Shown here piece after piece: positions 11,285 to 60,509 of a stretch of DNA of 64,000 nt. Where the stretch lies: contig QPGO01000028.1 in the NCBI GenBank assembly GCA_008632985.1, positions 553,598-617,597 on the forward strand, given 5' to 3'. The DNA comes from Psammoneis japonica. Lineage: Eukaryota. A program made the translations under genes and the position numbers. Numbering within the stretch: position 1 is the stretch's first letter; the number at the start of each line of letters is the position of its first letter. The notes beneath the pieces were generated by a model. The model worked only from the letters and a program-made list of their open reading frames with translations. It did no database searches and had not been told where the DNA came from.

Positions 11285-11440
11285 GGCTTAAAAAATTGCA
11301 GTTTCTCTCTCTAAAGATTTAACAAGAAGTCGAGTGTGGGTTCCGGCCTCCATGCGTCCTGGCTCCAAGGGTTTACAAGCAGCTCAGCTTAGAAAAAAAA
11401 AAAAAAAAACAGAAAAAAAAATCATTATTTTTAGGAACAG

Positions 11441-12277
11441 TCAAAAGAGAACTTGTGCAGGTCCGCGCAATCTGAACACATCAGCCATTCCACAGTGTGT
11501 AACATGCTTCTTGGCTTCAACATAAACCCCAAGCTTTTCTACCCCATTTGAGTCTCGCAACTTCACAGCACCAGCACCCATGGCGGGATCTGGATGGACC
11601 TTGCAATGGCATGTCTGCAATCCATGCTTCTGGTTGAAAACCCCAACTTTGACCCCAATCTGTTGCAAGAACCTGGGGTCAACGACCGGGAGGAACACAA
11701 GCTTGTCGGTAGGAGGCAAAACTGTTCCGCGTCCATGGTGATGGCTGTGGTGCACTGCACCAGCACAAGGAAAGTTCTGTGTCAAATTAAATGCTGCAAC
11801 ACCGTGGCAGGTGCCATCATTGTGCTTGACAAATGAAAGGGTGCCGCTGTTGCCAGGCTCACCATGGTTGAGGCAGAACCCCACCAAAAGCCATCAGAGC
11901 ATCCGTTGGGGTGATCATTGATGATTGAGCCATTGCAGCTTGAAACGGCACCAAAGAGACCACGTCCAACAAGTTGAGATTGTTGGCTCTCTTCTTGCGT
12001 CTGTGGTGATCAGGGGCTTGCATTCTGGAATTCTGCCATTGGCGGCGTCAATCACAATGATGTTTTTTGATGCAGGGAGTGGATTTTTAAAGTCTCGATG
12101 ACATGGGTTGACCAAGTGCACCCACCCCAAGAACACCCAATTGGCGAATCAATTCCAGCAGTTTGACAAAGACATGAGGTTTGTCTGTTGGTGAATTTGT
12201 TGACATCACCGACAGAGCACACAATGAGCAGCACCAACGATGGTGTTCTTTGCTCCACCAAAATGGTTGAACCACAG
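11441..12277 (-). pseudogene. Decayed, TpA-depleted coding remnant interrupted by the copia element (it appears to continue at about 19335-19750); weak resemblance to a trypsin-like protease GxSG motif
   Basis: Protein-like frame containing GEPGNSGTLSFV...GVAAF. TpA is nearly absent. Identity is uncertain. Confidence 0.3.
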
Positions 12278-12553
12278 TGACAGAAATTGAAGGCAAATGG
12301 CAAGAATTCAAACAACAACTCCTTGCTGCTGTCTAAATGGCAGATGAGTCTCCGCTCAGAGACCGTTGCAGGAGCCGAAAGACGTGCAAGTCGGCATGAT
12401 CGGGCTGCTGTTGTCATTCTTGTGAGCCTTGTGGCTCGAAAGCAAACTACATCGTGCGCAAACGCGCGGAACTAAAGCACACAAAACTGTGCGCGGCAAA
12501 CTAAACAGTGCGCGACATTTCGCGCGCACCCAAATCCTGTTCAAATCCTGTCA
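12278..12553 (-). repeat. 3' LTR of the copia element
   Basis: Direct repeat of 19059-19334 with TG...CA ends. Confidence 0.95.
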
Positions 12554-12559
12554 CTCCCC

Positions 12560-15500
12560 AGTTTGCTTGAGGAGTCACAGAAACAGATTCGACTTCGGAT
12601 GGAATGAAGTTCCAGAACATGAGGGGGCAGAGAAGGTCCCAGATTTGGGAGTGACCCCAATGCTTGCTGAGAATGTCAGCAGGGTTGCGGGAGCCTTCGA
12701 TGAAGTGGAACTCAAGGTGACCAGAGGCGATTGCCTCACGCACACAGTGGAACAACAGTGCGGTGTGTCGCTTGTGTAACTTGGAGTGCGGGATGGTGGC
12801 ACTGTCTACAACTGACTTGTTGTCACCGAACATGTGACTGACATTACGGATCGGGACGCCAAGGTGGCGCAGGGTGATGCGCAGGTCGATGATCTGCTCG
12901 ACACAAGTCCTTGCGGCAACAAATTCAGACCCACAGGTCGCAGTCTCCACGGTGGCTTGCTTCTTAGAGAACCAATCAGCCGGGAATTTGTTGAGGAAGT
13001 GGAGCATTCCCATGACAGAGCGTCCGGTGAGCATGCAATGGTGCAAGTTTGCATCAACGCAGGGGGTGGCAGTGACAAAACTTGCCAAGGGGCAGTGGAG
13101 CATCCTTCGGGATCATCTCTTCTGCTTCGCCGCACACGGAATGCATCCATTCGTGGGCCGGAGCAGGGAGATCCAAACAGTCGGGCTCTTCCGTGCGAAC
13201 GCGGAGAGCGCCGTGTCGCATCTTGGAGAGGCACCCACAGACGCGTTTGGCACGATCCAAGTGGCCTTGACGGGGCGCAGCTCGGAAGCTAGAGAGTGAC
13301 ATGACGGCCGTGGCAATGTCAATTCGACCAAGAGACACTGCCCATTGGAGTGAACCAACAAGGGACTGGAACTTGTGAATGCCATCGGGCTCCAGCAGTT
13401 CGGAAGTGTCCAGTTCGGGGTGGTCACCCTTCTCCAGAGGTGACAGGGCATTGGTGGCAGGTTTCTCCCCAAACAGTCGGGTGCAGCTGTCGACCATGCG
13501 CTCAATGTACTTGCACGGAGACAGGCTCAAGGCACCGTCGGGATCCCGGAAAAAGTCACAACCCAGATGGAACTCAATGGGTCCCGCACCCTTGAGCTTG
13601 AACTTGCACTTTTCCGTGAGAGTGTCGACGAAAGATTGAGGGTCCTTCACAGCAATGGCGAGGTCATCCACATAAACGGCAATGCATTCACAGTGGTCGC
13701 CATTCCTGCGCATCCAAATGTCGGGTTCGGCGCGGCAGGGGAAGAAGCCTTCAGCTCGCAGGCAGTCGGCAAAGCGCTCGTGCCAGCGGAGACCGGAGCT
13801 GCGCAGTCCATGCAGGGCCTTGTGGAAGACAAGGATGTGTCCTTCGAGTTTGCCAAATTCGGGTCCGGCTGCAATGTGGAGCTTCTCCTCAGTGGTGGCT
13901 TCAAGACAGGCATTGCCAATGTCGGTGGCCCATGTCTCCAACTCGTTGAGTTCGGCCAGGAAAATCATCAGCCGAAGGCCACGGAGGGAGACTGCTCCGG
14001 AGTGGACACTGTCGACAGGCACGTCTGTGAGGTGCCCATCAGCTACGAGTCGTGCCTTGTGGCGACCGTCGTGTTTCACGTCGTACACCAGGTGCACTCG
14101 GATCTTCTTGTGTCCGCAGGAGGAGTGGAAGACTCGAAGGGCCCGCAGTCATGGAAGACTTCGTATTCCTCGAGTTGGTCCATCTCGAGATTAGTTGCGT
14201 CTCCCCATTTGCGGTCACCGTTGCGCTCATCTAGTGACATGGCGTGTTCGCAGTTCCGGGGAACTTCGCATCCGCACTTGTGGCGAGGTGCAGTGCGGAA
14301 GGAGCGAAGCTTGGCTTGGTTGGCCATGCGAAATAGCTTCTTTTGGCACCTCGCGATGGTGCGGAACCGCTTCCAGCCATCCGTGTCGAGGAGTCCATTC
14401 TCTCGTGCATAGATGGCGCAGGTGACGGGGTCGTCCTTGGCGATGATGGCAAGAGGCTCGGACATTGTCTCCCCACTTTCCCATTCGAGCATGATGTTGT
14501 AGCTTGAGCCTTTCCAGGTTGGGTCATGAGGCTTCAGAGGTCCTTCGTGTGACACGGTGCGTCGGAATTTCCAAACAGCAGTGTCTTCGTCTTCTTGCTC
14601 AATGTGATTCATGATGTTGTTGCAGGCAAGGACTTCCTCGCATTCGTCATTGTTGACAGAGCAGACGAACTCAGCAAGCTCGGGATTGCCGTTCACTTTC
14701 CATTCATGGTCTTGACGGCCTTGACGATGCGAGCTCTGTGGCGTTGTCCGTCCTCTTGTGGCTGCATGAGGAAGGCACATCCGATGATGTCTTGCGGATT
14801 GAAAACTGGCATCTTGGGTGTCCTGATCTCCCCATCAGGAGAATCGACGGGGTTGTCGTCATGGCGAGATTTGATGATGGGTTCAGGTGGCTCCCCATCA
14901 GGAGGATCAAGACGCAGGTTTCAAACGGCAGGATCGGTGGTGGCGGAGCGTACGTTGGACCGGTGGAGGATCTTCTGAGTCTCGTCAGAGAGAATCTTGA
15001 AGGTCATCTGGTGGCCAACGTGCTCAGCAATGCCAACGAAGCGTCCACGCAACTCACGGGATTCGGACAGCCAATCGGAGTCATCGAGGTGGAAGCACAC
15101 GGGTTCCCACCAGTGAAAGCAAAGCAATGGGCTGATGTCCGGGGTGGAGCCAGTGAGAGTCTCGAGGGGCGTGCGCCAGTGGAGACGTGGGGACGCTGCA
15201 TGGTTGAGCATGAAGCACACATGCATGAGTGCCAGCAGCCATGTGTGGGCGGGCGAACCAAAACGATCCATGACAGTGTTTGCCATGCGCTTCACGGTCT
15301 GGTGTCGACGCTCAGCAAAGTTTTGGTGTTGCTGGTGAGGCTCACTTTGCCAGCTGGAGATGAAGTGGGCTCGCAGGATCCCGAGCACTTTGTTGCTGAT
15401 CTCAACTTGAGCACGGTCGCTAATGAGTTTGGATGGGGCACCACGCTCATGGATCTGATCCTCGAGTGTGTTGACAAACTCTTTGTCCATCTTGGTGCCG

Positions 15501-18117
15501 CAGACGTCAGTGATGGTAGACTCGGTGCCAACAAACAGTTGGGCGCTGGTGCAACCAGAGTCGATGGCGGGGGTGTCGGCACAAACGGTGTCAGTGGCGA
15601 CAGGCTCGTTGCGGCGGTGCACATTAAGGGCGGGGTTGGATGATTTGCAGGCCTTCCTAAGGTGTGTGCCGGCGGGCATGCGGGCGCACTGCGTGGTGCA
15701 GTCAAAAGTGCGACGGACCGCATCGGCAGGTGGGAAGCCAAAGTGGGGCCGAAGAGACTCGAAGGGGGGGTCCTTGGGCTGTGCAGTGCGCTCCGGGGGC
15801 GGAACGTCGTCGTCCTTGTGGTCAATCGCGTGCAGATGACACTCGTAGAACACGTCGTTGTTCGGAATGAGGTGATCATCGAGGGCGGACGCGTGATCGG
15901 CAGACAAGGAAGCGGACATGATGGTCTCGTTGACAATGACACGATGACGGCAGTTGCCGCATTCGTCAAACAGGTTGGCAGTGGGATCGTCCTGTGGGTC
16001 AGAGATCGCGTCGCACCACTGGTCGTCGTCAGTGACAGAGTGATCGAGGATGGAAGGATCCCATGTGTCATCACCGGTGAGGATGACATGGGGCAGGGTG
16101 TCCCATTCGGCGTCAGTGCAAGGTCGCATGGCAACACAAGGCAAGCCGGCCTTGATGTCAATGGGGATGACACAGCCATCAGGAGTGGCAATGTGTTGCA
16201 AGCCGTTGGGCACCTTGACAGAGCAATCGTTGACATCCTGTTTGCACCATTCGAGCTGGCTGCAGGAATGGATTGTCTTGCCCTTGCCCGTGCATGCGTG
16301 CTGATGGAGGATGGCGATGACGGGACCACGCTGGGTCTCAATGACGGCACCAGCGGTGACAACAGGGGTGTCCACCAATTGATGGTCGTCAATGCCCTGA
16401 ACGTCGACTTGGCCCCACGATCGACCAGAGCACCAGTGCGTGTGGAGCAATGAGCAGAGGCAGAGCAAATGACATTGTGGTCATCAACGTGATGGCAAGT
16501 GCGGCCGTTAAGTTCCATGTCATCGGCAGAAGCTGGCGGGGTAGAGGGAGCGGCGGATGGCCCCAATCGACTGGCATTGGGGGCTTGGTTAGGAGACAAC
16601 AGACGTTGCAGATCACCGGGTGGCAGTGGCTTGCGCTTGGTGAGGTGCGCCAGGATGGGATTGTCTGAAGTGGCACCCACATTTGGAGCGGAGTCACCAG
16701 AGTCAGCAGGAGTCGTGTTGGACAAGTTGACATCACCGTCACTCCCAAGGCGTTGGTCGTGAGGGTTGGCCGTAACGGACTCATGGCAGTTGCTGTCTTG
16801 CGGGTTACGGGGAGGCGGACGAGAATGTTCAAGGATGATTGCCTTGGAGGAATGGGGCAACGAATCCCAAATCCGTTGGTGGTCGGGAGGGAGACGTTTC
16901 CATTGGTCACCGGTGAGGCTGGGACCACGGGTGTGGGCAGCATTGGCCTGAAGGACGTCAATGTCACTGTCAATGTCGCAGAACACATCGTTGGACGGTT
17001 CCTCGGAGCAGACGTCGTGTGCGCACATGGTGCGTCGGGGAGCTCGAGGTGTCGTCTTGGGTTGAAACGCACTGTCGTGTTGAGCTGCCGCGGAGAGGAG
17101 CAAGCCACAGTGTTGATCGCATGTGAGGCTCTTGCCACTCTGCGTACGATGCTGATCAGCTTGGTTCTTGACAGCACGGAGTTCCTCGACAGGGTGTGCG
17201 GCATTCTCGAGCATGACGCACTTCTGTCCTTCAGAGAAGTGGTCACTGGCCGGGATGAGTGCCTCGCACTTGCGCAACTGATGTTGCCAATGTAGGATGA
17301 ACCCGTGGGTTGGACCTTTCCAAGTGCCATCACCAAGACGTGCGGTGGCAAGGTACGTTGGCAAGGTGGAGGACTCGACAGATGCGCGGGTGGAGGCGAG
17401 CGCATGCTCAGACAAGGCGCGGTAGACGGTCTGGGCGTCAGAAGACCCCACATTTTCGCGGATGAGAGCCTTGCCCTTGTCGGTGAGAAGGATGCGTTCA
17501 AAGACGGCGAACATGTGCTTTTGCTGTTCAGCAAAGAGCAGTTTGTCTTCGGGGCTGGTCGGTTTGTACGACGAGTCTAGAATGCACTTGACGTCTTGGG
17601 CACGGGCTTGTGCCACAAGTGAGGTGTGCCAAGTGTGCCACTGCTTGTCGGATTTGAGAGCTGTGAAAGCGGTGGGATCACGCTTGATGCCTCGCTTGAA
17701 GTCCCGCACTGGGTCGCGTGCCTTGGTCGGGTTGGTGACATGCGGAGGTGCGAGGGGTGAGCTGCAGATGGACACAGAAGACATGCAGTCAGGGCTGAGG
17801 CGGCAGGCAAGGAACTCGTCATGCGTGAACAATGAGGAGTCATTGGCAACGTCAAGACCTTTGTGTGCTTTGACAATGTGCAGACCAACTGGAGCTGCTA
17901 ACATGTTCTTATAACCACGGGGCAAAGGGATCACATCAGTGCCGTTGTCGCACTCAAGCGAGTCGATTTGGGACGGTGTGAACGTGAACAGTTCTTGATG
18001 CGAGTCCGTGCTGTCTTGGGCCAAAGCCAAACGAAGAGGGCTCCCAGGACCTTGGGCAAGCACGGTTCCAACAACATGCTCGAAACCATCGGTTTGTTGC
18101 TGACGAGTGAGAACCAT
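12560..18117 (-). pseudogene. Copia gag-pol, frameshifted and with pervasive Tyr>Cys/His substitutions
   Basis: Fragments lie in ORFs 15292..18147, 14921..16468, 14076..14780, 13054..14097 and 12501..13103. DIGNACLEA, KALHGLRSSG and ETATCGSEF occur where copia proteins have Tyr. Confidence 0.93.
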
Positions 18118-19058
18118 GGTAGACAAAAGTGGTGTCAGGACAAGCAATTCTTGTTGGGAAGCGAAGGCAGACTTGAAGCTTGGGTGAGAACAGACTTGAC
18201 TTGAAACAGACTTGACTTGAAATCTTGAACTGCCTTAAAATCAGAAGTCGCCGGGCTTTGCTGTCCCGTTTGTTGTCAAGTGCTAAACTTCCCATCCGGT
18301 CCGTAGAGTTGTGCTGCCGGCACATCCGAACCCGCAGCCAGTGGCGCTTTGGGTTGCTTGCGAGCGGAGCAGCGGGTTGCAAACCCCTGCAGGCAAGCTG
18401 ACTGGAGGTGGACAAGACCCCCGAACCGTTCTCATTTTGTGTCGGTTGGATTTCCTGATCAGGCTGGCCAGTTGACGCAGGCGTTGGGCGCTGTGGACGA
18501 ACGAACAAACGCGGGAAAGCACCCTCGCCCCAACGCAGGCTGCAATCACGGCTGCTTGCTCTCACAGTCGTCCTCGTGGACCTGGCAGAACTGTGGAGCA
18601 CCAGCAGTCTGGGGCAGATCAGGCACAATGGACTCGGTGTGCTTGCAGAGTGGTGGCAAAACCGCAGTCTGAAGAGTGGGTGCAGGTTCTTGGCCGTGAA
18701 GACATGTGTGTGCACGCATGTCTTCAGCGACGAAGATCCTTGAATGTGTGGGGTTCTTGACCGTCAACCGATGAATGGGTGCATCAAGGGATGACGATCA
18801 AGGACAGACTTGGACATGACCGTTGAATGCATGTCTTCAGCAATCAAAGGCAGTGCAATCAATCCAGATGTCCAGCGGTAAGGAGACTTGACGGTGATTT
18901 AACTTCCTGCCGATGCCCTGGCATTGAATGCGCGCAGACTTGCCAATGTGTGTAGAACACACACGGAGGTCCACGCAAAATTGAAATGGCGTCGTTGGTA
19001 AATCAACGACGACGATGGCGGTTGCTCAATGGGTTGACAATGTGCAAGACTGTCAATC

Positions 19059-19334
19059 TGACAGAAATTGAAGGCAAATGGCAAGAATTCAAACAACAAC
19101 TCCTTGCTGCTGTCTAAATGGCAGATGAGTCTCCGCTCAGAGACTGTCACAGGAGCCGAAAGACGTGCAAGTCGGCACAATCGGGCCACTGTCATCATTC
19201 TTGTGAGCCTTGTGGCTTGAAAGCAAACTGCATCACGTGCGAACGCGCGGAACCAAAGCACACAAAACTGTGCGCGGCAAACTAAACAGTGCGCGACATT
19301 TCGCGCGCACCCAAATCCTGCTCAAATCCTGTCA
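19059..19334 (-). repeat. 5' LTR of the copia element
   Basis: Direct repeat of 12278-12553. Confidence 0.95.
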
Positions 19335-20064
19335 CACAACAATGTGCATGTTGCTTGTTTGTTGGGGTCAGCACAGTCAAACTGTGGTTGTCAGCACCAA
19401 TCATGGGAATTTCATAAATTCCATTGCAGAGGATCAGCAGCAAGCTTGAAGCTGCAGATCCTTTGCGGCCACTTCAAGTCGGTTGACGGACCCTTCGATT
19501 CGCTTGAGAGACTCAACCATCCATTGTTCAAACCATGTCAATGGCTTGTTGTGTGGACTTGTCAGTGTGCTCATTGCTGCAGCCAGCTACAGAGAAAGAT
19601 GGCAGACCAGAGAGTGACAGCATGGAAATTTGAGTTTTGAGGTTGCTTCAGAAAAGTGCGTTCTGCAAGAGATTGCAGTCTCAATCAAGCTGAGTGCGAT
19701 TCCATGCTGTTTGCAGAGAGCGCTCCGGAGTGTCGCGTGTTGATGGAGTTGCCTTGCAGACTATATTTTGCAACGTCGAGGCGATGACTATTCTAGAGCT
19801 AGAGCGTGATAAACCCAAAACGTTGGTGACAACACGGAACACTGCCGTTTTTGACTGAAGCTTTCCGCGAACTTGGGCCCGCCCAACGTGGGTCGAAAGA
19901 GTCGTATGATTCGTCGCCCCTTTCGTTTCACGGCGGGGTTCGCATCGGAAGATTAATGATGTACAAGAATATGAATACTTTTCAATGATCCCGACGCCGA
20001 AATCAATCGCATCGATGCGTCCGACGCTGTCACAACGAAGAAGAGCACAACAGCAACAAACACC

Positions 20065-20729
20065 ATGTCATTAACCCGTATGTCCATGTTCGCCTTGAGG
20101 GCGGCTCCTAGAGCTCGTGTCATGTCTGTCGTCGAGCAACGAACCATGTCTACGTTGGGTGATTCGTTTGGTAAAAAGGTACGTCTGATGTCGATTCAGA
20201 ACGGTGACATGTGCTGCTGTGTTGTACTCCTACGTTGTTTTGGAAGAAGCAGCACAGAGATATCGATAGATTCTATAGCAGAGCTTTGCATTTGCATTCT
20301 CTTGTATGTTATGATTGTATGTGGCGGCAGGTATTAACGAAGGGTCACAGCGCATTTATACAAAGATCGAGCCTCCTACCAGCAGCGACAGAAAAGTTCT
20401 CAAAGCTGTTTTCACTCATGTTGTTCCATATCCTTATTTTATTATCACAGGAAAAAGTAGAGGAAGAGCTGTACATTCGAAAGAAGGAAAAGGAGGCGCT
20501 CGATAAACTAAGGGAGAAGCTCTTGCAGGAGCAAAAGGAGTTGTTGGAGCAGTACGAAAAGGACGTGCACGAGCAGGTTGTATCCCCCACCATGAATGAG
20601 ATTGCAATCCTGCTGGAAAAGACTGGGGACAAGGTTAGTCCCGAAGGATTGGAGGCTCTTGCCAAGTGGCACCAGAATCACCCTGCTCCCAAGCTCATTA
20701 TTGGCGTTGACCAGAAGGACGAAGATTGA
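20065..20729 (+). CDS. Mitochondrial F1Fo-ATPase inhibitor (IF1/IATP)-like protein, two exons
   Basis: Intron 20179-20450 (gtacgt...tcacag) gives GDSFGKK|EKVEEELYIRKKEKEALDKLREKL, which resembles the IF1 core. The Arg/Ser-rich N-terminus resembles a mitochondrial presequence. Confidence 0.75.
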
Positions 20730-21333
20730 GGCGCTTTTTTGAGAGGCTTGTCAGCTTCAAAGCACCAGTAGTAGGTTAGAATTTTTCAGAAAAACTTATC
20801 TTTTGTGAAGCTGTCTTATCCTATTAATAAGTCCTAAGTCGTTGTTAAATCATGGCTGAGTTTGCTCGTGAGCCAACTGATGCTTGTACGGTATGGAAAG
20901 AAAGTATGTTTATCAGAATGTATCGAGCACATCCGTATTTGCGACTACGCGATTGGGTGTTTGTTGGAAAGCGTAGGAGAACCAGCAGTAGGTAAGAAAA
21001 AAATCAGATAGATCCTTATCTTTTTCTGCCTCTGCCTGAACACTTTATGTTGTAGCTCTATGCGTTGTTTGCTACCCGGTGACTCATACCGGGTAAGTCA
21101 ACTACTGTAGACATGGACTTGGAGGCCTGCTGTTAATGTGTAGAGAGGCTTTCGTCAAGTCGAGTAGTGGCTTGCTTTCAGCAGCTTATAAATACTTTTT
21201 TACCATTTCAACGAGGTGCCTCTCTCGTTCGACGCCCAACCTGTTCGATTGAAGAGCTACTATTGTAGTTTCACATGACGCGAGCTGTTACGATACATTG
21301 GAGCTATAAACAGAATCTTTTATGAATTATCCT

Positions 21334-22475
21334 TTACACCGTTCTGGGAGCACCAAACGTGAAGAGAGTTCCCAGACTTCCATCAGGACGTACCGCCTGT
21401 GCTGTCCAAGGTTCTGTCGGATGCGCATTAATGGCAATGGTTGCCTTGTACCAGTCCTTGCCGACCGAGTCTCCGTGGAGGACCTCGTCGTTCCACACGC
21501 GGTCAGAATCTTTCTGCACACCCTCTAAAACTTCTGATCCATAGGGGCCTCCAGCATTGGCGTATATAACCTTCACAACATCGCCCGATTCGACTGCTTC
21601 CTTTCCAACCTTCATTTCTCGAATCATTCTCTCGTCCACACTCTTTTGAGCACAGGTCAAGTCATTTACTGTAAAGTGAAGAGCGAGCTTGTTGTATCCC
21701 TTTGGAAAGAAATGGTCAATGTAATGAAACATGGCCACGTCCCTTCCCGATGTTTCGCACATGGCATTGATGTTTTTCGCTTGAGCCTGTCTCAACAGGA
21801 GCGCGCCAAGGAGCTCGGAAATGGTGCGGTACCGAGAAAAGATGGCCGCCTTGAGATCGGAATACTTTTGTACCAGCTCCTTGGATGGTTGTTCTGAATC
21901 CTTCATTTGCTCGCTCGTGAGAGAATACAGCGTGCTAAAGTCTTCGTTGCACAGAGTCGTAATCATGTGATCAAGCTGTCGAAAGAACGAGTTTTCGCCA
22001 TTGGGCAGGGATTCCGGTGTAAAGTCAGCCTTGCTGCCCGGTGGTGACACGAGCGCTTCTGCTAGCAATTGCGGAAACCACGGTTGGTACATGGAGGTGG
22101 TTTTGCGGATACCGTTGACACCCGTCACCAACACGGCCCACGGTTGTTCTTCTTGTTGTTGATTCGATGCGTGCTTGACCGCTCCCTCCCAGTTGCCTTC
22201 ATGCAAAATCCGTTCAAACATTTGACAAGCTTGCGGAGTCATACCATCGGGTGTGATTATTTGGCCAGCTTTCCTGCATTGACTCCTGTCCGATCCCAAT
22301 CCTTGTGTGACAGATGCGCAGCGTCCTTCAGAAACCGCTCGAGCTCAAACCAGTCCACATTGGCGTCTTGTGGAGTAATGTTGAGAAGTGAATTGATAAC
22401 GTCATCTAATTCGGACTGAACGAGAGGCAAGCCCTCCTTGGCTCGTCCCGCCATGGCTGTTGTACGTTCCTTCAT
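21334..22475 (-). CDS. Zeta-toxin-like P-loop kinase; one-base frameshift near 22260; true start uncertain
   Basis: Walker-A-like VLVTGVNGIRKTT, plus MCETSGRD and RMIRE. Adding one A in gccaaataatc joins ORFs 22257..22475 and 21334..22299. Confidence 0.7.
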
Positions 22476-23179
22476 TGTCTTTTCTGCCGTTTCTGTCTCG
22501 TCGGCGTAAGCGTACTGCTCATTTGCCGAACCGTTGGTCGGCGCATGGCAAATACATCATTGGGAGGCATGATAAAGGCAGGAGAAGAAGAAACAAAAGC
22601 TTGACAAGAGGCGACGGCAAGAGCCAACAAGAGTGATTGAAGCATGTGATAGAGTTGTAAGGTGCTCTTGTTCTCTCTGCAAGTTGAACAAGTGCGGATT
22701 GATGGATTGTAGCCCTAGGGCCCTAGGCGTAGAAATGTGACCAATCGTGGTCGGAACTCTTTTTGTGACCACCTTTGTTTGTGACGGAAGTTTGATGTAC
22801 TAATTCCTACGTAGGCGCCTACGTGTCGTACAAACACGCGTACAACACGTCATTTTGCCGCCAACTATGTTAGAGTACTGTAGGTACGCGCCCTGTGCAC
22901 TTATGGAGCCCGACGAGGAGGGTTCGGCCCCGCCGAACCCGACGAGAAGGGTCCAAGCAACGAGGTGGAGACCGACGAGGGGGGTTGCACAATGGCGAGA
23001 ACGACCCACGATTGAGACGGACTTGTCACACCATCAAACACGACAAACGAGCGAGTTTCGCAATAGGAATCATTCGAAAATGTCGCAAGAGTCATAATTA
23101 GCATTTTACAGTGCATGAGGAAAAATGCCAAATCGTGTAGAAATGTACACAATGTCATACGAGAGGGTGATTAGAGCTG

Positions 23180-42330: not shown

Positions 42331-42374
42331 GGTGGTTGGTTGACTTTTTTTGTGGCACTGTTGCGTGTGGGAGA

Positions 42375-42751: not shown

Positions 42752-43567
42752 ATGATGAATGTTGCGGAAGATGACAAAGAAGATGAGGGGGGCTTCATGC
42801 ATTTTTCAGTTCATGTTGAGAGAGCTGGAATCACGGAAGTCAACGGCGAGTATGAACAAGCTGGTGAATTCAATGGCGCTAGAAAGTTCATTAAGGAAGG
42901 CGTCTGGGGAAAGCGTCCGGTTGTTTTCTTGCTGTTTCGGTGCTACGTTTGCGACGACTTGAGACGCTGGTACATTTCTGTTGCGCCCAGAGGCCTGCAG
43001 CCAGGGACAAACGCTGACATCGATTTCTACACTGCGCCAGCCGATAACCCGCGAGTAGTAACTCCTCCTGAGGATGGCTGGAAAACTGTTGGAGTAGGAA
43101 GGGATCCGCCACCTCAGTTGATAGTGAAAACCCAGGAAATGCAGTCGGACTGGGATATGTCCTGTACGCAAGACTCGGGCGAAGAAGACGAGGGGGTCTT
43201 AGTGGATGTTAAATATTTGCCCGACCACTCAGCAGTTCGTGTTGAGAGAGCTGGAATCCTAGAAGTCAACGGCACGTATGAACAAGCTGGTGAATTCAAT
43301 GGCGCTAGAAAGTTCATTAAGGAAGGCGTCTGGGGAAAGCGTCCGGTTGTTTTCTCGCTGTTTCGGTGCTACGTTTGCGACGACTTGAGACGCTGGTACA
43401 TTTCTGTTGCGCCCAGAGGCCTGCAGCCAGGGACAAACGCTGACATCGATTTCTACACTGCGCCAGCCGATAACCCGCGAGTAGTAACTCCTCCGGAGGA
43501 TGGCTGGAAAGCTGTTGGAGTAGGAAGGGATCCGCCTCCTTCAGTTGGTAGTATAGCGACCATTTAG
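42752..43567 (+). CDS. Protein with two near-identical domains of about 105 aa (VERAG..VNG.Y...RRWYIS..PGTNADIDFY..PP.DGW)
   Basis: 426-bp period DNA duplication (about 42806-43195 versus 43232-43627). The domain resembles the C-terminal module of diatom BTB/POZ proteins (from recall, not verified). Confidence 0.7.
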   Translation: MMNVAEDDKEDEGGFMHFSVHVERAGITEVNGEYEQAGEFNGARKFIKEGVWGKRPVVFLLFRCYVCDDLRRWYISVAPRGLQPGTNADIDFYTAPADNPRVVTPPEDGWKTVGVGRDPPPQLIVKTQEMQSDWDMSCTQDSGEEDEGVLVDVKYLPDHSAVRVERAGILEVNGTYEQAGEFNGARKFIKEGVWGKRPVVFSLFRCYVCDDLRRWYISVAPRGLQPGTNADIDFYTAPADNPRVVTPPEDGWKAVGVGRDPPPSVGSIATI

Positions 43568-44063
43568 GAAATGCACTCGGACTCGGATATGTCCTGTACG
43601 CAAGACTCAGCCCAAGAAGACGAGGGTAGGCCTCATTGGCAAATTCTTAGGGAAGATGCGCATCATTATGAGTTGATATCCTTATTTACGTCCTTGTGGT
43701 GAGGTAGGCCACCCTCTTGACTTGGGATCATACGACATCAAAGTTGTGTCGGAGCTCCGAGAAAAGTATTTGGGTTTGTTAGCTAGATCGTTTCGCAAAA
43801 TAAGTCAAAGCAGAACAAACTCTCTTTTTGCGTACTAGAGAAGATGATGACGGCTTTTTTCGGAAACGACAATGAAGAGGAAGCCGCGTGGAGTAAGTTG
43901 TATGTCTTGCAATATAGCTTTTTTCTTTACACACCGTCATGACTTCTACATATTCAGCAAGCATGAGTATAAAACTGACACTACAAGAATCACCTCTAAG
44001 CTGATGACTTCTAAAAACCCGAGAAAATGGTCTATTTGGCTATCCTGAGGCATACCGGATTGA

Positions 44064-46332: not shown

Positions 46333-46457
46333 GGTTGATTTTTTTGTGAGGGCGGGCAACGCACGATATCGTCGCCATAATCATCAGCGATCTTTTCTGT
46401 ACGGGGCATGTGTGTATAATTCTACATACTGATTTTGCTACGAGACTACATTACCAT

Positions 46458-49400: not shown

Positions 49401-49494
49401 CAAGAAACATCTTGGTGATGAAGTGCCAGCAGAGGATCATGCCAATGCTGCAATGAAATGTCAAGAAGAGAAACAAGCAGAAAATCAATGGTGA
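46458..49494 (+). pseudogene. Decayed duplicate of the SRPBCC gene at 60510-61049, including its upstream region, split by an insertion of about 2.25 kb (about 46859-49111)
   Basis: 46458-46858 aligns with about 60291-60681. About 49112-49494 aligns with about 60683-61045. Confidence 0.9.
46928..48430. repeat. Interleaved inverted repeats A-B-A'-B' inside the insertion
   Basis: A (about 46928-47470) is the diverged reverse complement of about 47695-48250. B (about 47500-47665) is the reverse complement of about 48260-48430. Confidence 0.8.
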
Positions 49495-49957
49495 GGAAGC
49501 ATTCCATCAAAATCTGCTGACTTCAGCTGTGCAAGTGCAGCCCATCTGCTCCAAGGTGCACTGGGGTTTTTGACTCAGATGACCTTCAAAAGAGGAAAGC
49601 CAATGACATTCTTGATCTCATGCAAAGCTTCATGGAACAGCCAAGTGTTCTTAACTTGCTGACATGCCCCCATTTCTGATGTGCAGCTTTGAGACATCAA
49701 GCTGTGCAATGCCCAGAGGCTTTGGCTTGCTCTGGATTTGAAAGCCAACTTTCAATTTGGCAGTTCTGGGGCTCTTTCTTCATTGCATCAAAGTCACATT
49801 TTTGGGGACTTGAAGCACATGAGAATGAACTTCAGGTGTGAACCAGAACAAGTGACTTGAGACTCTGGAAATCTGACTTGTTTGCAAGGAGGTGCATTTG
49901 TGCAAGAGCGTCTGGGGTGTTTTCATCAAAAGTGGATTTTTCCAATCAACTCTGGCT

Positions 49958-50216
49958 GGCCTGTTCCAGCTCCAGGTGATCTGCTTTTCATCACACGAGA
50001 GGCCGATTTTCTGTGCAGTTTGGCGCAATTGACTCCTTCAATTTTGATGGTTTCGAAAATCAAAAGGTGAGTGCACACCCAAAAATGCATGCAAAGTGTG
50101 CACTTGCCCTTTGATTTGGCAAAAAACGGATTGGAAAAAGTCAATTGTGCTGAATGCACAAATTGCCAAATGATGGGAATCGAGCCCGCGCGGAGCACCT
50201 GGAGCTGGAACAGGCC
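49958..50216. mobile_element. MITE, copy 1 (259 bp)
   Basis: 21-bp TIR ggcctgttccagctccaggtg. 4-bp TSD ggct at 49954-49957 and 50217-50220. Confidence 0.9.
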
Positions 50217-50543
50217 GGCTGGTGGGCACTCAAGAGAGCTTGTCATTGTCACAGAGTGATTTGCTGCTGGCTCTTGTGCACCTTCCTGCATCTTCTCTAC
50301 ATGTGTGCTGTCATTTCCAATTCTGCCACATTGTCTGCTGTCAGCATCACCCCATTTTCAGGAGCCAATTTTGCCTTGGGTTCAAGACAAGCTGCAGTGC
50401 ATTTGGCAGCCTTTGCAACACCTTGTTTTCTGTTGACTGCTGCAAATCCAACTAGAGTGTGCATGTTTTTGCCACCCTTGTCTGTTTCAACCACTGCTTG
50501 CTCTGTGAGCAGCAGGCAGGCCATCTGTTCTGATTGTTCCCCT

Positions 50544-50806
50544 GGCCTGTTCCAGCTCCAGGTGCTCCGTGCGGGCTTGAATCCCATCATTTGGCAATTT
50601 GTGCATTTGGCGCAATTGACTTTTTCCAAATCCTGTTTTGCCAAATCAAAGGGCAAGTGCACACTTTACATGTGTTTTCGGGTGCACACTCACCTTTTGA
50701 TTTTCGAAACGATCAAAATTGAAGGAGTCAATTGTGCTGAACTGCGCAGAAAAGGCCAACCGGCCTCTCGCGATGAAAAGCGGATCACCTGGAGCTGGAA
50801 CAGCCC
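50544..50806. mobile_element. MITE, copy 2 (263 bp), same family in the opposite orientation
   Basis: Same TIR with one mismatch. 4-bp TSD ccct at 50540-50543 and 50807-50810. Confidence 0.9.
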
Positions 50807-52169
50807 CCCTCGTGCCACACCATCACTTTGTTTTTCTCAGAGGTGCTCCTGTGTTTTTGTAACTTGGTGTGGGGGGTTCCTCTTTTTTTGACAGGAGCTG
50901 GGTGTTCAACCTCAACAACACAAGGGACTCACTTTGAAATGGCGACCAACTGACCAACCCACATGCCAATTGATGGATGTGAAAAAGCAAACCTGCATCC
51001 ATTTGAAGTGCTTGTGGATGTGACAAACAGTTCTGTGGTGAACCCGATTTGACTTCAGATGATGGTTGGAACACGGATGTAAAACAACTTTGCCAGTGTG
51101 GTTGCTCACTTGGGGTCTGATCTTTTTGCTCCTTTTGAACAGACACGTTTCTTTTGCCTTTCAAAAAGACACAAGAAGATCGTTGCTGTGTGGGGTCATG
51201 GATGACATGTTGTCATCAGAGCATGAGCTTCAGCAGCTCTGCAAGCCGTCACATGCAAGCATGTCCATGTGGCCAACAACTGGGGGGACCGCGGTGCCGC
51301 TGCAGGATCCAGCTGCGTCAACTCAGCTGCAAACAGTCTTTGCAGCAGATGCAGTCTTGTCAGAGCATCTTCAAGACCCATCACTCAACAGTGCCAGTTT
51401 GGGTGTTGCTGTTCAGGCCACTCAAGCTCAAATCTCTGGTGACACAGCAGTCCATCTGGCAGACAATCATGAGAGTGCAATTGCCGTGGACTGCCTTTTT
51501 CACAAACTTCTTGAGGATGAGAAAAAGCACTCAATGAACCTGAGTGTGACTTGCCTGTTGAAGTCTCTGTCCCAGCGGCCATGCATTTGACAAAAGAGAT
51601 TGATGGCGGCTGGAGTGGCTGGAGTTGGTTCTTGATTTGAAGACTGCAGAAAAACCATCTTGTCATCACAAAGTGACACGTTAACCATCTGTTTGCTTGA
51701 GGAGAGAGCAGATTCTGTCATCAAAAGAAGCTGCTCTCTGGTGCACTTTCCTGCCACCAAGCGGCACAACCAGTCATGGAGCATCATGCAAAACACCATG
51801 ACAAGAAGCACAAACAAGAGAGCACTGGCAAAAAGGCCAAATGCCCCATCATGCAGTGATGGCAGGCACAGCTGTTGGGTCTTGCTCTTGCAGCACTGCT
51901 TTTTGTAGTCGGTGCTCATCTGTCGCAAAAGGGCAACAAAGCACACGTCAGGCACACCTTGTGCTCAGGTCTCCCAAACAGTGGACATTGAAACAACACA
52001 GCCATGATCAACACAAATGGGATTGCAACAGTGCAGACTTTGGATGAGGAGTCACTCGTGAAATGAGCATTCTCTCATGCTGGGGCTCAGTCAAGGCTGC
52101 TGACCTTCCATGTGAATTTGCCATGCATTCAAGGCACAAGAACCATTTTTAGAGACACTCTCTCTGGGA

Positions 52170-52524
52170 TTGGCAAGGGGGGAATTGAAATGCTGTTTCA
52201 GGAGAGGGAGGGACAAGCGTCCAAAAGTTCACAGGAGAGAGCGTCACCATTGGGAACAATGGTCAAATTGTGAAACTCACGCCTGCCACACTCTCCAAAA
52301 CTTGCCAGACGTGTTTCATCGTCTCACTGGCCCAAGGGAACTTGAAATCTCAGATTGCCCTAACTAGAGGGCTGCCCCAATCGATTCGATCTTGCAAGCT
52401 GAAAAAGTGTGTGTTCCTCCACCCCCGAAACAGATGCCATCCACCACATCTCGATGTCGTTGACGACTTGAGTCTTGGCCTGCTGTTCACAATAATTTCA
52501 ACTACATCAAAATGTTGTGAATAG
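52170..52524 (+). pseudogene. Possible leucine-rich-repeat gene fragment
   Basis: LQNLPDVFHRLTGPRELEISDCPN followed, after a frameshift, by GLPQSIRSCKLK. Confidence 0.35.
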
Positions 52525-55450: not shown

Positions 55451-56688
55451 TGTCGACATTCTCTCTTTTGAATAAGTAATGTGTGCTACATGTATGAAGG
55501 TTGTTCATAAAAAGGGCTTTAATGAGCCTGTTTATAATTGTCTCTTCATGAATGTACAGCATAGAGAATCTTTTGAATCATTGGTCAAACCTCGCATTCA
55601 GCATCTGTCAAGAGCACTCTGGTGTTACAACAGACACACATTGTAACATCTGCAATGTGTGTTTAAGAAATCCAATGTGAAAGACCGTCAGAGCCAACTG
55701 AATGTGCTTGCAATGCCTGGCACAATTAACTGGCTTGTGTGCCCGCACATTGCGCATGTGAAGACCTTGTCTGGCACACCCAAACAAGGGTTGAGACACC
55801 CACCTTCTCTGCAGCCCACATTCTTGATGATGGCATGCTGAACAGTTTCTGAGAGCATGCTTGAAATTCCAAGAGATGATGCATTTCAGCAGGAGAGAGA
55901 AGAACTGCCATGTCTTCATTGATGGGCACTTTTCAAATGTGGTGGGTGTGGCTGACTTCATTCTCAGCAGTGCTTGCATCAGAGGTGGCAATGCAGTGGT
56001 TTCCACTTTCCTTTGTAAAATTTTGAGTGTGCATTGTTAAAATTGTCAACAAGCAGAACTTAAAAAATGCCAGCAAAAGTGCTTGACAAAATGAAGGTGT
56101 TTTTTGCATTTCATCTGATGTCTCATTAACTTTTCTTGCACAAGCTTCAATCAAATGCATGCAATGTTTAATTTGGTTGGGAACAAAATCCATTTTTTGT
56201 CATGCATGGTTTGGTTTCCTTTTGATCATAATTAATTTGAACTTGGTTTTAACTTTGTCCTCCTCACTCACGTGTGTGTGTCTTTGCATGTGTGCAGTCT
56301 GCAGCACTTCACGCAAGCACGTGACCCACCTTCATTTTTCTTCACTTTTGCACAGCCTGTTGGTCTACGGCATTTTCAGCATGTGTTTTACATGCGCAAT
56401 TTTCCACACATTTCACAACAGTGCACGCTCTCCCCAAATTTGAAAAACGAGAGCGTGTGCTGTTGTGATTCACGTGGATCCTGCGTGTGGTCACAAATCT
56501 GCAAATCGACAACTGGCCATGGCGGTGAAAGACTTTGTGTCGACATTCTCTCTTTTGAACAAGCATTGTGTGCTGCATGTGTGGAGGTTGTTCACAAAAA
56601 GGGCTTTGTCAATGAGCTGGCTTGCAGTTGCCTCATCATGAACACACAGCAACACATGGAGAATTTTTTGAATCATTGGTCAAACCTC
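55451..56688. repeat. Dispersed direct repeat of about 145 bp: 55451-55593 (TpA intact) and 56538-56688 (TpA lost)
   Basis: Both copies run tgtcgacattctctcttttgaa...ttgaatcattggtcaaacctc. Confidence 0.92.
55603..55979 (-). pseudogene. RNA polymerase III largest subunit (RPC1) N-terminal fragment, copy 1
   Basis: LLSPAEMHHLLEFQACSQKLFSMP and NCARHCKHIQLALTVFHIGFLKHTLQMLQCV (clamp region, GHFGHI.L..PVFHIG). Duplicate of 58557-58953. Confidence 0.75.
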
Positions 56689-58049
56689 CGCGGGTGCCGC
56701 ACATGCGCGCAGCTCCCCCCCAAAGCAAGTGAGCCTTGGCAAGCGGTCGAGTCATGGTCCCACGAGGAGCAACCCCACCATTCCAGAAACAGTTGTGCTT
56801 GTCATTGCAGTTCAGTGAGTCACACAGCATCTCAGAAAATCCCACAGCCAGAAGCCAAGGAGGAAGCCGTGACAGTGCTTTTTCTCTCTCTCTGGAGGCT
56901 GGAACAGCCACAAGAGATGATGGCAAAGAGACTGAAACCAAGAGTGCAGCACGTGAGGGTTGCAACCTGACAGAGCATTCCTGTCAACAATCTAAGATGT
57001 GTGCATGGTGGCAACAACCTGCATTTTAGATTGTCAAAGAGTGAGCAGATCTCAAACGACCCATCTGGAGGAAGATCAGCATGTCTGTCATGTGTGCATC
57101 TCATGTGCTGGCACTGCAGCACATGGTGACTGACAGCCCAGTTTCATGTTTCATGGACAGATCACAGATCAGATTGCAGCTTTTGCTCACAACATTGTTT
57201 GAATGGAAGGTGGTTTCTCAAATTGTTTTTGGGGAGATTGGCTCGGGAGGACAGGTAGGGCACACACGCAGATTTTGTGCTGTTCATTGTGAATTCTGTG
57301 TTTGTCAATGGAAGAGACTCTCAGGAAAAACTGGCATTGAACAATGATCAAATCATTTGACAATCAGATCGTGGCAATGACAAAGCAAAAAACGACATGT
57401 GGCAGATCTTCAACAGCTCACATCTCACATTGGCCCCAACCATGTTGGGTGGAACATGTGTGATGTGCCAGCATGACTCTGTGACGCAAGAGCTTCTCAA
57501 GACAACGTGAGATGTCACTTTTTTGTGTGGAAAAAACAAAAAAAGAAAAATCTGAGTCTGACCCCATCACAAAAAAAGACAATGTCTCATGCATCATGTT
57601 GAGCCATGAGTCAAGCAAAGCCAAGAAGAAGATGAAAGTTGCTTGCAAGAGGGTTTTGCTTGTGCTTGTGTTTGCTCTTTGCAAGGTGGCAGGTGTGTGC
57701 TGGCCCCCTTTGCTGCAATTCTTAAAGTGCACAAATTGTTGCAGACCAACAAGCAATTTCCACTGCTGCTTTCCCATCTGGTCTCTGCTTCTTCCTCAGA
57801 GCTTGTGGCAGCACCAGAGTTCACACCAAACAATGTCACCTCTCCAATTGCAAGTGCTGCTGCAGACATCCAAAAGAATCATGGAGTTCATTTTGTCATG
57901 TGTTGCACATTCTCACAGTTTCTGCAGTCTGTTTTTGCTGTTCTCGGAAGGATTTTGGATCTGGCAAAATGACAGTTCTGCCAGAAAAATCAACATGCTT
58001 TCCAGACAAGTTCTTGCCACAAAACCATCCTCATTGTCTGCCTTTGAGT

Positions 58050-58953
58050 CTCTGGCACAGTTCCCACATGGGATTTGTCCAAAGTCATGCTCCTGGACAA
58101 TGGCTCTGGTGTGCGGCAATCATTTGGTGAGAACAAGCTCAAGAGCTGTGCTGACATCAACAATCTCTTGGGAGTTTGACAGCCAGATCATCTTTGTTCT
58201 TGCTGCCTCCACGAATGTCCACAGCTGCAGAGGGATGGCTGAGAACTGTGGGGAAAGAATGCTTTGCAGAATCAAGTTCTCTGGATGACCAATGAGAGGG
58301 TCAATCCAAAGGATCTTGCAATCATCATTGGGCATCATGGAGAACAGTTCCAGAACCCTCATTGGAAACAAGTCTTCTGCAGGTGGATTGCTCCCAGCAT
58401 GGACAGATGGCATGACATCTTCATTGTGCTTCATGGCAGATTCAAGGCTTTCCCCAAGTTGCTCCATCTTGCCATCCAAGTGCTTTCCTTTTGCTCAGTG
58501 CCCAGCCTTTTTTTATTGATTTCTCAGCATTCTTCAAAGCTGCTGATCACATTTGGCATCCGTCAAGAGCACTCCTCTGGCAAAAGTCTTGCAGACAAAT
58601 TGCAACATCTGCAATGTGTGTTCAAGAAATCCAATGTGAAAGACCATTGGAGCCAACTGAATGTGTTTGCAATGCCTGGCACAATTGACTGGCTTGTGTT
58701 TGCACATTTGTGTGAGGAGATCTTGTCTGACACACCCAAACAAGGATTGAGACACCCAACTGCAGCTCGCATTCTTGATGGCATGCCAAACAGTTTCTGA
58801 GAGCATGCTTGAAATTCCAAGAGATGATGCATTTCAGCATGAGAGAGAAGAACCAATTTGAGGTAGGAGATCCTCTTTGAAGAGCCATGTCTTCATTGAT
58901 GAGGCATTTTTCAGATGTGGTGAGTGTGACTTCATTCTCAGCAGTGCTTCCAT
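58050..58953 (-). pseudogene. RNA polymerase III largest subunit (RPC1) N-terminal fragment, copy 2 (longer)
   Basis: GCLNPCLGVSDK, HIQLAPMVFHIGF, EDLFPMRVLELF..PNDDCKILWIDPLIGHPENLIL and DDLAVKL.EIVDV. Confidence 0.8.
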
Positions 58954-59811
58954 GATGCAACCTGTTCACATCATGAGACATGAAGCCACATTCTCTCAAG
59001 CATCTGGAATTCTTGCTGCACAAACACAGCTTGTGATTCTGTCAGTTCAAAAATGAGAAGCCCTGTTGAGCATCAAACCACCTTGATGCCATGGCCTTGT
59101 GATGCTGCTCTCCACCATGAGCCTCTGCTTGAAATGGTGGAAACAAGTGTTGTGATGCCTCTGAAAAGGAATCTGAACATGAGCCAAGGGATGCTGATGG
59201 GATGTTGATGACTGCATGAAAACGGACATTGAAAACTTTGGTGTTTGTTGCTCCCTTCAGTTTGGTTTTCACAAAAAGAACCCGGGTCAGCAACAAGGTG
59301 TGGTGTTTCTGCCATTGCCATGCTTCCAACACATGAGGACTGTCATGGCATTGTTCATGGAGTCATTGCTCTCATTGCCAAGCCACATCACACACAACAA
59401 GCCCTCACTCAACCTGGCTGCAATTGGTGTCTCCTCCTCTTTTGGCAGCTGCTTCCAAGAGGGCCTTTGTGTTCTTATGTGATCCTCATGCAAAGGAGTT
59501 ACTTTGCACATTTGTGACAAACTCGTCAATCGACGCCACCTCTGGAGCTGTGGAAGCATGTGAGAATCACACCCATCATCTCAGCCCTTGCCACATGCTC
59601 CCAGCTTGAAAAAGACTGTTGTGCACCATGGTGGAACAAGCAGATTTTTGCAAACCTGGCCCATGCAAAAATCACAAGGTGACAGATGCAGTTGCAGGAG
59701 AAGCACCTGATGCTCTTTTGCCTGCAGATGTGTGTGAGAGTTGTTTGTGGTGCCATGACATGGTGGCAAAGCAGCTTGTGGATGCCAGTGCCTGTCGCCA
59801 ATGCTGTCACA

Positions 59812-60278
59812 ACAATTGAAGAACTTTGATGACACTCAATTGCTCACAAGACAAATGGGGTCAAAGGGAGATCATTTTGTGATGCAGTTGCAGCTGTTGA
59901 GCTGGTCTTGTTGGCTCGTGCCTGCCTGGTGTGCTGAGCGAGAAGAACATTGGAAGAGCGGGCCAGTGTTTGAATGACTTTGATGGAATCAATTGCTCAC
60001 AAAACAAATGGGGGGGGGGGGGGGGGGGNGCAAAGGGAGTTTGTTTTGAAGCAAGTGTGGCCATTGAAGTGGTCTTGTTGGCTGGCGCACTTGCAAATTG
60101 GTGTCGCTGAGAGCAAGTGGAGCGTTGGAAGAATGGGCCAGTGTTTGAACAGCTTCGGTGACATTCAATCACTTGCAAGACAAATGGGGTAACAAAAAGT
60201 TCATTTTGAAGCGAGTGCAGCCATTGAACTGGTTTTGTTGGCTGACGCACTTGCAAATTGGCATCACCAAGAGTGAGC
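59812..60278. repeat. Three diverged tandem units of about 155-175 bp; the middle unit has a poly-G run and an N
   Basis: Recurring ttgaa..cttt/cgg/atg..caat..ct..caa.acaaatgggg...ttttg...ggtcttgttggct. Confidence 0.8.
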
Positions 60279-60509
60279 TTCATTGCCATGAGACCTTGCG
60301 CCACATTTTTCTGATTCCATAGACCGGCCGTCGTCCGTCGAACAGCATTAGCCTGCATGCTGGAATTTGGATATTGCTTGCCTCGCTTTTAGGCCCCAGT
60401 ATTCTTCTGCGGTTGCAAGGGCCGGAGCATAGGGATACTTAGTTCTAAAAGCATTCAAGTCTTCCTGTCGTCTTCTTCTGTTGTCGGGGCTGTTGTTTTG
60501 TGTTTTTGC

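Follow-up and report, generated by a model that had tools for sequence, protein, structure and literature searches.

Islands of mobile DNA nearly free of TpA in the diatom Psammoneis japonica point to TpA-specific hypermutation

What could strip almost every TA dinucleotide from certain parts of a chromosome and spare the genes that lie between them? This question is raised by a stretch of 64,000 nucleotides from the diatom Psammoneis japonica (GenBank assembly GCA_008632985.1, contig QPGO01000028.1, positions 553,598 to 617,597 of the forward strand), hereafter called the window and numbered from its first letter. Five blocks of the window hold hardly any TA. A first-pass annotation, made from the letters alone, had proposed that a mutator acting on A:T pairs turns TA into TG or CA within repeat blocks, and had likened it to fungal repeat-induced point mutation (RIP). 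We assign a probability of about 0.75 to TpA-specific hypermutation of mobile-DNA islands, of the kind known from the chlorarachniophyte alga Bigelowiella natans. An A:T-pair mutator working in chosen chromosomal domains was first measured in 2026, in that one alga; the window is a new diatom case of this recently described process, from another major lineage and in its saturated state.

The depletion was followed as a profile of observed/expected dinucleotide ratios in 1-kb windows, and block limits were drawn from every TA position and one paralogue alignment. The TA ratio is 0.00–0.19 in 1-kb windows lying fully inside the blocks versus 0.35–0.80 in those fully outside, with intermediate values where a limit is straddled, and TG and CA inside the blocks reach 1.4–2.0. 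Altogether, the 34,899 bp of blocks contain 154 TAs with four-letter context, that is, 4.4 per kb (an alternative count gives 159); the density is 38.4 per kb for the remainder of the window and 49.6 per kb for 80 related Copia loci of metagenomic origin. The longest run without TA extends over 1852 bp (24989–26841), for which the chance at 38 TA per kb is about e^-71. Limits are abrupt: at the right end of block 3, TA occurs at 42308 and 42440 and then at 42453, 42456, 42463 and onward. The five near TA-free blocks of the first-pass annotation are therefore upheld, with limits within a few hundred bases of its coordinates. A point that it had not stressed is the depletion of CpG, with observed/expected values of 0.08–0.72 in blocks 2–5 versus 0.74–0.94 in block 1. 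The latter also retains more TA (6.7 per kb, the other blocks 1.8–4.9), and its GC content climbs to 0.59. Since TAA and TAG are gone, stop-free frames are plentiful on both strands of the blocks, and 169 of the 248 open frames of at least 90 residues in the window fall there; such stop-poor, TA-free DNA is a trap for gene prediction. Block 5 includes a single N, at 60029.

That these letters are real is supported by a public sequencing run, X1, which has no recorded platform and may be the same data used to polish the assembly. It contains 93 % of the words sampled from 20001–30000. Contigs of its accurate reads were built from exact 31-letter words and aligned to 11001–31000: one of 3211 nt covers 23305–26514 with one other letter and one gap, and one of 1707 nt covers 26487–28193 with one other letter. 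Both therefore carry the TA-free sequence of block 2, at a depth of 66–71 compared with 55.5 for neighbouring genes, which corresponds to a single copy. A strand-dependent miscall of a modified base would break such contigs at every affected site, and X1 rules out a long-read miscall. No RNA-labelled run on record contains the stretch. A further run labelled 'DNA?' (X2) has a contig that omits 272 bases with GT..AG ends (20176–20449), probably an intron, and this suggests that X2 is RNA; within 11001–31000 its depth is almost zero in block bins, and it was not used as evidence. A small run, X3, matched Copia only.

The direction and timing of the change are recorded by the Copia element of block 1. 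Its two long terminal repeats (LTRs) differ at 17 of 277 bases, and all 17 differences are transitions. Ten belong either to four adjacent doublets at which one LTR has TG and its partner CA, the pattern expected if a single ancestral TA was resolved independently in each copy, or to the two sites at which TA faces TG or CA; two more are CG facing TG. Four lie in one alternating pyrimidine-purine run (CGTGCGCA versus CACGTGCG, 12454–12460 against 19235–19241), suggestive of multiple hits in a formerly TA-rich run that were able to create new CpG. Only one difference in the 277 bases lies outside TA, CG and this cluster. As LTRs are identical at integration and these two now differ by TG/CA doublets, the loss of TA postdates integration.

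A duplicated SRPBCC-type gene, one copy of which lies outside the blocks (60278–61040), provides a second record. Taking that copy as the reference for the fragment in block 4 (49159–49489), 12 of 14 TA sites bear a transition, as compared to 4 of 162 other A/T bases, so that the excess at TpA over other A/T contexts presupposed by the original proposal is indeed found. CpG is affected as well, with 11 transitions at 28 C/G bases of CpG versus 6 at 106 other C/G bases. In X1, furthermore, the Copia family reaches a summed depth of about 1000 times single copy and differs from the window at 485 places, comprising 406 transitions and 73 transversions; the 40 best-supported of these include five CA/TG doublets as well as majority-TA sites, these only in contexts such as GTAA and GTAG, which are slow as set out below.

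Ancestral TA can also be read from the encoded proteins. The Copia frame was compared at conserved columns with 80 relatives. The residue is kept in 176 of 200 conserved columns, yet 8 of 12 conserved tyrosine columns are now cysteine or histidine (codons TGT, TGC, CAC and CAT), and the share of tyrosine is 0.8 % versus 4.8 % in the relatives. Eleven of the 24 replaced columns are explained by a single change from TA to TG or CA, TA at codon borders included, and one by CG to TG. The Gypsy frame of block 3 has no tyrosine in 487 residues; cysteine occupies 4 of its 8 conserved tyrosine columns, and 8 of 10 conserved arginine columns are glutamine, histidine or cysteine (CGN to CAN or TGN). In the MULE domain, tyrosine amounts to 0.5 % versus 3.2 % in relatives, and one of just two conserved tyrosine columns is histidine, a sample too small to count. 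Together, the LTR pair, the paralogue pair and the Copia and Gypsy proteins bear out the earlier claim that TA has become TG or CA on both strands. Since no tyrosine can be encoded without TA, the TA-free copies are defunct derivatives rather than an unusual family that is still active; active copies that are equally TA-free, which would have spoken against a mutator, are not to be expected. Scarcity of TA as a composition proper to the family was rejected too, as TA observed/expected is 0.49–1.15 in the 80 related Copia loci, the best 80 of 561 from a scan whose patterns contained tyrosine or phenylalanine.

The same signature is met elsewhere. Among the best 120 relatives of the Copia frame, P0164 (65 % identical) has cysteine or histidine in 9 of 15 conserved tyrosine columns, compared with zero to two changed columns in the remaining 119. 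In P0164, CVDD replaces YVDD. Among 120 Gypsy relatives, P0342, P0274 and P0291 have 8–9 of 11 conserved tyrosine columns turned into cysteine or histidine, P0250 has 5 of 11 and P0352 3 of 11 changed, and 99 have none. These six proteins suggest that the process probably operates in other organisms or samples, too.

Survival of TA depends strongly on its neighbours. Not one ATAT is left of 63 expected, and the surviving fraction rises through ATAC (0.01), ATAG (0.04), GTAC (0.05), ATAA (0.06), CTAC (0.13), CTAG (0.19), GTAA (0.21) and CTAA (0.23) to TTAA (0.45). These values were described by an additive, per-strand model with four parameters: the two strands act independently, and the contribution of each depends on the base 3' of its A. 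The fitted cumulative hazards are 2.6–2.7 for TAT, 1.3–1.5 for TAC, 0.9–1.0 for TAG and 0.4 for TAA; with either baseline, the model fits all ten context classes and improves on a uniform rate by a likelihood-ratio statistic of 127–156 (3 degrees of freedom). On each strand, the surviving TAs thus agree with a 5'-TA motif whose next base ranks T > C > G > A. As 5'-TA-Y on one strand (Y, pyrimidine; R, purine) is a 5'-R-TA duplex on the other, sequence alone cannot tell whether A or T is the target. Along the blocks, TG and CA follow each other in random order (runs z −0.02 to +1.86), and sites are therefore hit singly, unlike in RIP or APOBEC tracts. Strand-coordinated tracts of that type were tried and rejected, as both the runs tests and the window dispersion of TG versus CA match random order. 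All four doublets of the LTR pair point in the same direction, which is compatible with chance (p = 0.125). Product direction derived from four-letter word counts is confounded by CpG decay and was not used.

The blocks differ in how far the process has gone. Retained TAs of block 1 include six GTAC sites, and its CpG is intact; in the other blocks, whose CpG is lost, TTAA, CTAA and GTAA make up most of those retained. Block 1 is young. About 85 % of its TA has been lost, as compared to a single LTR difference in 277 bases outside TA, CG and the alternating cluster, from which the rate at TpA is estimated to be about 1000 times background and about 40 times that at CpG. The change of CG to TG or CA, with its CpG deficit, is limited to blocks 2–5 and does not account for the loss of TA: CpG decay is a separate, slower process.

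A clue to how the affected domains may be chosen comes from their edges. The first part of the duplicated SRPBCC-type segment, which precedes the leftmost transposon of block 4, keeps its TA up to 46611 and is converted from 46693 onward; conversion thus sets in 240–320 bp short of that transposon's junction (about 46930). The second part, enclosed between transposons, is fully converted, and the parent copy at 60278–61040 is untouched. Depletion in block 1 likewise reaches about 740 bp and 430 bp past the LTRs, into single X1 contigs at single-copy depth. For the core of block 2, no second X1 contig was found at a likeness of at least 85 %. This fits a domain that is nucleated by mobile DNA and spreads by a nucleosome or two, and we infer that it is set by silent chromatin and not by sequence homology.

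According to the reading that we favour, the blocks would be islands of integrated mobile DNA, made up of Copia, Gypsy, MULE and foldback elements and trapped gene fragments. After integration, one A:T pair of each TpA would be changed to G:C, giving TpG or CpA; sites would be struck independently on either strand, with 5'-T-A-N as the per-strand target and N ranked T > C > G > A. The affected domain would end within about 0–300 bp of the outermost element, apart from the longer flanks of block 1, sparing adjacent genes, and the loss of tyrosine codons and of TAA and TAG stops would kill the elements permanently. Within these islands, the decay of CpG to TG or CA, as for methylated cytosine, would be a separate process, about 40-fold slower. 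Of this reading, the pattern, its direction, its context dependence, its onset after integration and its approximate speed are shown by the sequence. As to the chemistry, enzymatic deamination of adenine in DNA, with the resulting inosine read as G, is the candidate that we consider first, at somewhat less than even odds. Of the earlier claim that a chromatin-targeted mutator acts on genomic A:T pairs, the mutator thus stands, as one that works after integration, on both strands, at TpA and within mobile-DNA islands; its targeting by chromatin keeps the lesser standing given above. Likewise, LTR elements, a DNA transposon (MULE) and host-type gene fragments are confirmed as contents of the blocks; the miniature inverted-repeat transposable elements (MITEs) also claimed are partly supported, as short palindromes only. 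One of these palindromes, 23187–23297, spans the left limit of block 2, with TA in its outer arm and CA in its inner arm; the other (33513–33727) lies inside the Gypsy element and retains several TAs.

Among the other explanations, targeting by repeat homology as in fungal RIP, in which repeats are recognised and mutated over their length, is the most serious, though improbable. It could draw on the sharp boundaries, on the mostly transposon content with a Copia family at a summed depth of about 1000 times single copy, and on the DNMT4 enzymes of diatoms, which a paper describes as related to fungal RID and of unassigned function (PMC9998398). It is opposed by the duplicated gene segment, mutated only in its island parts, by the block 2 core without a second contig, and by flanks at single-copy depth and in single contigs that are depleted for 240–740 bp; in B. 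natans, moreover, the main target is single-copy according to the preprint text (10.64898/2026.01.13.699255). Past repetitiveness of the islands may still be considered, because hypermutated copies diverge quickly. With a chemistry opposite to that of RIP, an untouched outside paralogue and a core that is single-copy at a likeness of at least 85 %, the term RIP-like does not hold in the strict sense and would be valid only as an analogy of outcome. Slightly less probable still is a thymine-centred version, in which a TET/JBP-type dioxygenase would oxidise T in 5'-R-T-A of silenced DNA to 5-hydroxymethyluracil (5hmU) or 5-formyluracil, and mispairing with G or faulty repair would yield T>C. Indeed, 5-formyluracil is mutagenic towards T>C, and the equivalence of 5'-TA-Y and 5'-R-TA leaves A and T inseparable by sequence; 5hmU:A pairs, in contrast, are only weakly mutagenic, and about 1000 times background is needed. 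A paper on dinoflagellates connects enzymatic 5hmU with transposon silencing (PMC11572971).

The remaining candidates are far less probable. Error-prone patch repair in heterochromatin by a polymerase of the Pol eta type, an option of the first-pass annotation, is very unlikely. This polymerase makes A>G errors at WA motifs, TA included, which speaks for it; it is a poor fit, because words with AA show no depletion (ratio inside to outside 0.97 for AAA and 0.91 for AAT), because 12 of 14 TA sites were hit versus 4 of 162 other A/T bases, and because near-total removal of TA would require every island to be resynthesised repeatedly. Even less credence is due to an artefact of base calling or assembly that modified DNA would cause in long reads. 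No platform is recorded for the assembly, and islands with decayed CpG are probably modified DNA, so that the suspicion was natural; X1 nevertheless reproduces 4.9 kb of block 2 at single-copy depth with two other letters and one gap, the random order of TG and CA does not follow the local strand majority, and the replacement of tyrosine by cysteine or histidine recurs in proteins from other public sources (P0164, P0342, P0274 and P0291). Least probable of all is editing before integration, of RNA by an ADAR-type enzyme or of cDNA. A preference of ADAR for a 5' U, mentioned by the authors of the B. natans preprint in their Discussion (10.64898/2026.01.13.699255), would suit the TpA target. Against it stand LTRs that were identical at integration and now differ by TG/CA doublets, the MULE DNA transposon, gene fragments and flanks that are affected as well, and hits on both strands in random order.

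Several points weigh against TpA-specific hypermutation as we read it. X1 is not an independent strain and may be the assembly's own polishing data. Some TAs in fast contexts remain; one example is the tyrosine codon (TAT) of YVDD. No TA-free locus is found among the 80 related metagenome Copia loci, the lowest 1-kb value being 0.26, in a scan that under-samples mutated copies; the trait is therefore not general. Chromatin-based targeting is drawn from two cases only, and the rate estimate from one LTR pair and assumed ancestral TA densities, with no new mutation observed. As to a deaminase, we know of no tRNA-type adenine deaminase that acts on chromatin domains. The natural tRNA target of these enzymes, A34, always follows U33, which would give the 5'-T rule. 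Amphioxus ADAT2, a natural tRNA deaminase able to deaminate A and C in DNA and the only natural ADAT2 for which this has been shown for A, is reported to prefer GAA (for A), TCG (for C) and single-stranded hairpin loops, not duplex TA (PMC10354150).

The features on which this account is based are collected in Table 1, together with genes of the surroundings.

Table 1. Blocks, mobile elements and gene fragments of the window
Feature	Positions	Strand	Remarks
Block 1	11541–19762		TA-depleted island: Copia element and TA-poor flanks of ~740 bp and ~430 bp; CpG not depleted
Copia LTR, block 1	12278–12554		paired with 19059–19335
Second LTR of block 1 Copia	19059–19335		paired with 12278–12554
Copia reverse-transcriptase frame, block 1	13057–14148	−	RVT_2 match
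Block 2	23215–29320		most extreme island: 1.8 TA per kb, CpG 0.14–0.59; no recognisable domain found
Block 3	~31912/32027–42440		Gypsy (RVT_1, RNase H), MULE element, HalD/2OG-Fe(II) oxygenase-like fragment
Gypsy RNase H frame, block 3	33483–34943	+	domain match
MULE transposase domain of DNA transposon, block 3	37346–38008	+	TA-depleted as well
Block 4	~46650–52493		foldback element, inverted repeat, part of duplicated SRPBCC-type gene
Foldback element, block 4	46928–48437		
Inverted repeat, block 4	49958–50806		
SRPBCC-type gene fragment, block 4	49159–49489	+	0 TA, 1 CG
Outside copy of SRPBCC-type gene	60278–61040	+	Polyketide_cyc2 match; normal composition; internal control for ancestral state
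Block 5	55728–60320		two RNA polymerase III largest-subunit-like fragments and internal repeats
RNA polymerase III largest-subunit-like fragments, block 5	55611–56036, 58123–58494	−	best solved-structure matches are cellular RPC1 and RPB1
Palindromic short elements	23187–23297, 33513–33727		partial support for MITEs
Alpha/beta-hydrolase gene			adjoins block 1; best named relatives Attheya (64 %), Triceratium, Detonula, Thalassiosira; closest relative overall 74 %

A viral origin of the polymerase-like fragments in block 5 was considered and rejected, as no relative was found in viral_contigs and the best solved-structure matches are cellular. Outside the blocks, 42807–43194 and 43233–43626 form a tandem duplication (93 % identical) in the open frame 42701–43567; this is gene-type DNA with normal TA, and its differences are unrelated to TA. 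Immediately left of block 4 lie two adjacent frames with PTM/DIR17-like Tudor domains, 44064–45857 (−) and 45718–46380 (−), the match of the latter being slightly below the Pfam cut-off (26.6 versus 27.2 bits); that a Tudor domain of chromatin-reader type stands beside a silenced island may be coincidence. Further to the left, an unbroken frame of 2242 residues (982–7710, +) carries, besides a short SH2-like match, the V-ATPase assembly domain Rav1p_C.

If the process is what we take it to be, it is not peculiar to one species or to viral inserts and is able to dispose of whole transposon families. Its saturated record yields constraints beyond the reach of a mutation-accumulation experiment, namely a flanking-base rule for testing candidate enzymes, a measure of how far the process leaks into flanks, and the sequence in which TpA (first) and CpG (later) are lost. 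In practical terms, dating of insertions by their LTRs would come out far too old unless TA and CG sites are masked, and a natural enzyme editing A in duplex chromatin, if real, would be relevant to base-editing work. Tentatively, and with more doubt than confidence, one may go further and suppose an ancient genome-defence system common to diatoms and chlorarachniophytes, perhaps extending throughout the stramenopiles, alveolates and Rhizaria. It would turn A:T into G:C at 5'-TA-Y in silent or foreign-marked DNA by means of a chromatin-recruited DNA adenine deaminase, and would depend on neither repeats nor an RNA stage; it would have run to completion in this diatom, with CpG decay helping to erase both self-complementary pyrimidine-purine steps from transposons.

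Known systems share single traits with the islands described here. Fungal RIP also kills mobile DNA permanently by mutation, with sharp limits, transitions only and some leakage into flanks. However, it changes C:G to T:A (mostly CpA to TpA), thereby creating TpA and lowering GC, whereas here TpA is destroyed and GC rises; it also needs a duplication and mutates both copies, whereas the outside duplicate at 60278–61040 was spared in the one case at hand. RIP further depends on a homologue of the RID methyltransferase and takes place ahead of meiosis. Decay of CpG by deamination of 5-methylcytosine matches the change of CG to TG or CA in blocks 2–5 and that of arginine codons in Gypsy, but is unable to remove TA, and in block 1 CpG still stands at 0.74–0.94 after a loss of about 85 % of TA. 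Editing by ADAR or APOBEC before integration resembles the pattern in its deaminase-type transitions clustered in mobile elements; unlike here, such edits favour one strand, occur only in reverse-transcribed elements and are the same in both LTRs. Adenine deaminases of tRNA type acting on DNA, such as TadA-derived editors and amphioxus ADAT2/3, have in common the conversion of A to inosine in DNA that is read as G.

The closest counterpart is B. natans, the sole match in the literature searched; searches on diatoms, RIP-like processes and A-to-G hypermutation gave no description in diatoms. The earlier statement that none is known thus holds for diatoms, but the same TpA hypermutation has been measured in this chlorarachniophyte, in a preprint of 2026 (bioRxiv 10.64898/2026.01.13.699255). 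Its text, on which the following comparison is based, reports that in mutation accumulation 231 of 302 nuclear mutations fell in two viral regions integrated in the genome, of which one is silent; of these 231, A>G or T>C accounted for 230, all these GC-biased mutations being stated to lie on TpA. They arose in 11 of 15 lines, at a rate of about 6e-7 versus 3.5e-10 elsewhere. TpA-poor coding sequences of B. natans were enriched in reverse transcriptase and DDE domains, and an ADAT2-like adenine deaminase was proposed by the authors. The words 'diatom', 'stramenopile', 'flanking', 'trinucleotide' and 'CpG' do not occur in the text of the preprint, whose supplements may hold context data. The window resembles this case in that changes at TA sites are almost only A>G and T>C, with CpG transitions present but separable, and strike TpA on either strand, giving TpG or CpA. 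They are likewise confined to discrete regions of foreign or mobile DNA, and the genes between the blocks keep normal TA; silence was seen in B. natans for the larger region, derived from a nucleocytoplasmic large DNA virus (NCLDV), while the blocks here are read from sequence. The rate is about 1000 times that of the rest of the genome in B. natans, and an indirect estimate from one LTR pair would put it in the same range here. The differences are equally instructive. B. natans is a rhizarian with giant-virus and virophage inserts, P. japonica a stramenopile with transposon islands, and TA observed/expected is 0.45 in the NCLDV region as compared to 0.00–0.19 in the islands. There, the process was seen happening; here, it is deduced from its end state, which adds the flanking-base rule TAT > TAC > TAG > TAA, limits on a scale of 0–300 bp and a parallel decay of CpG.

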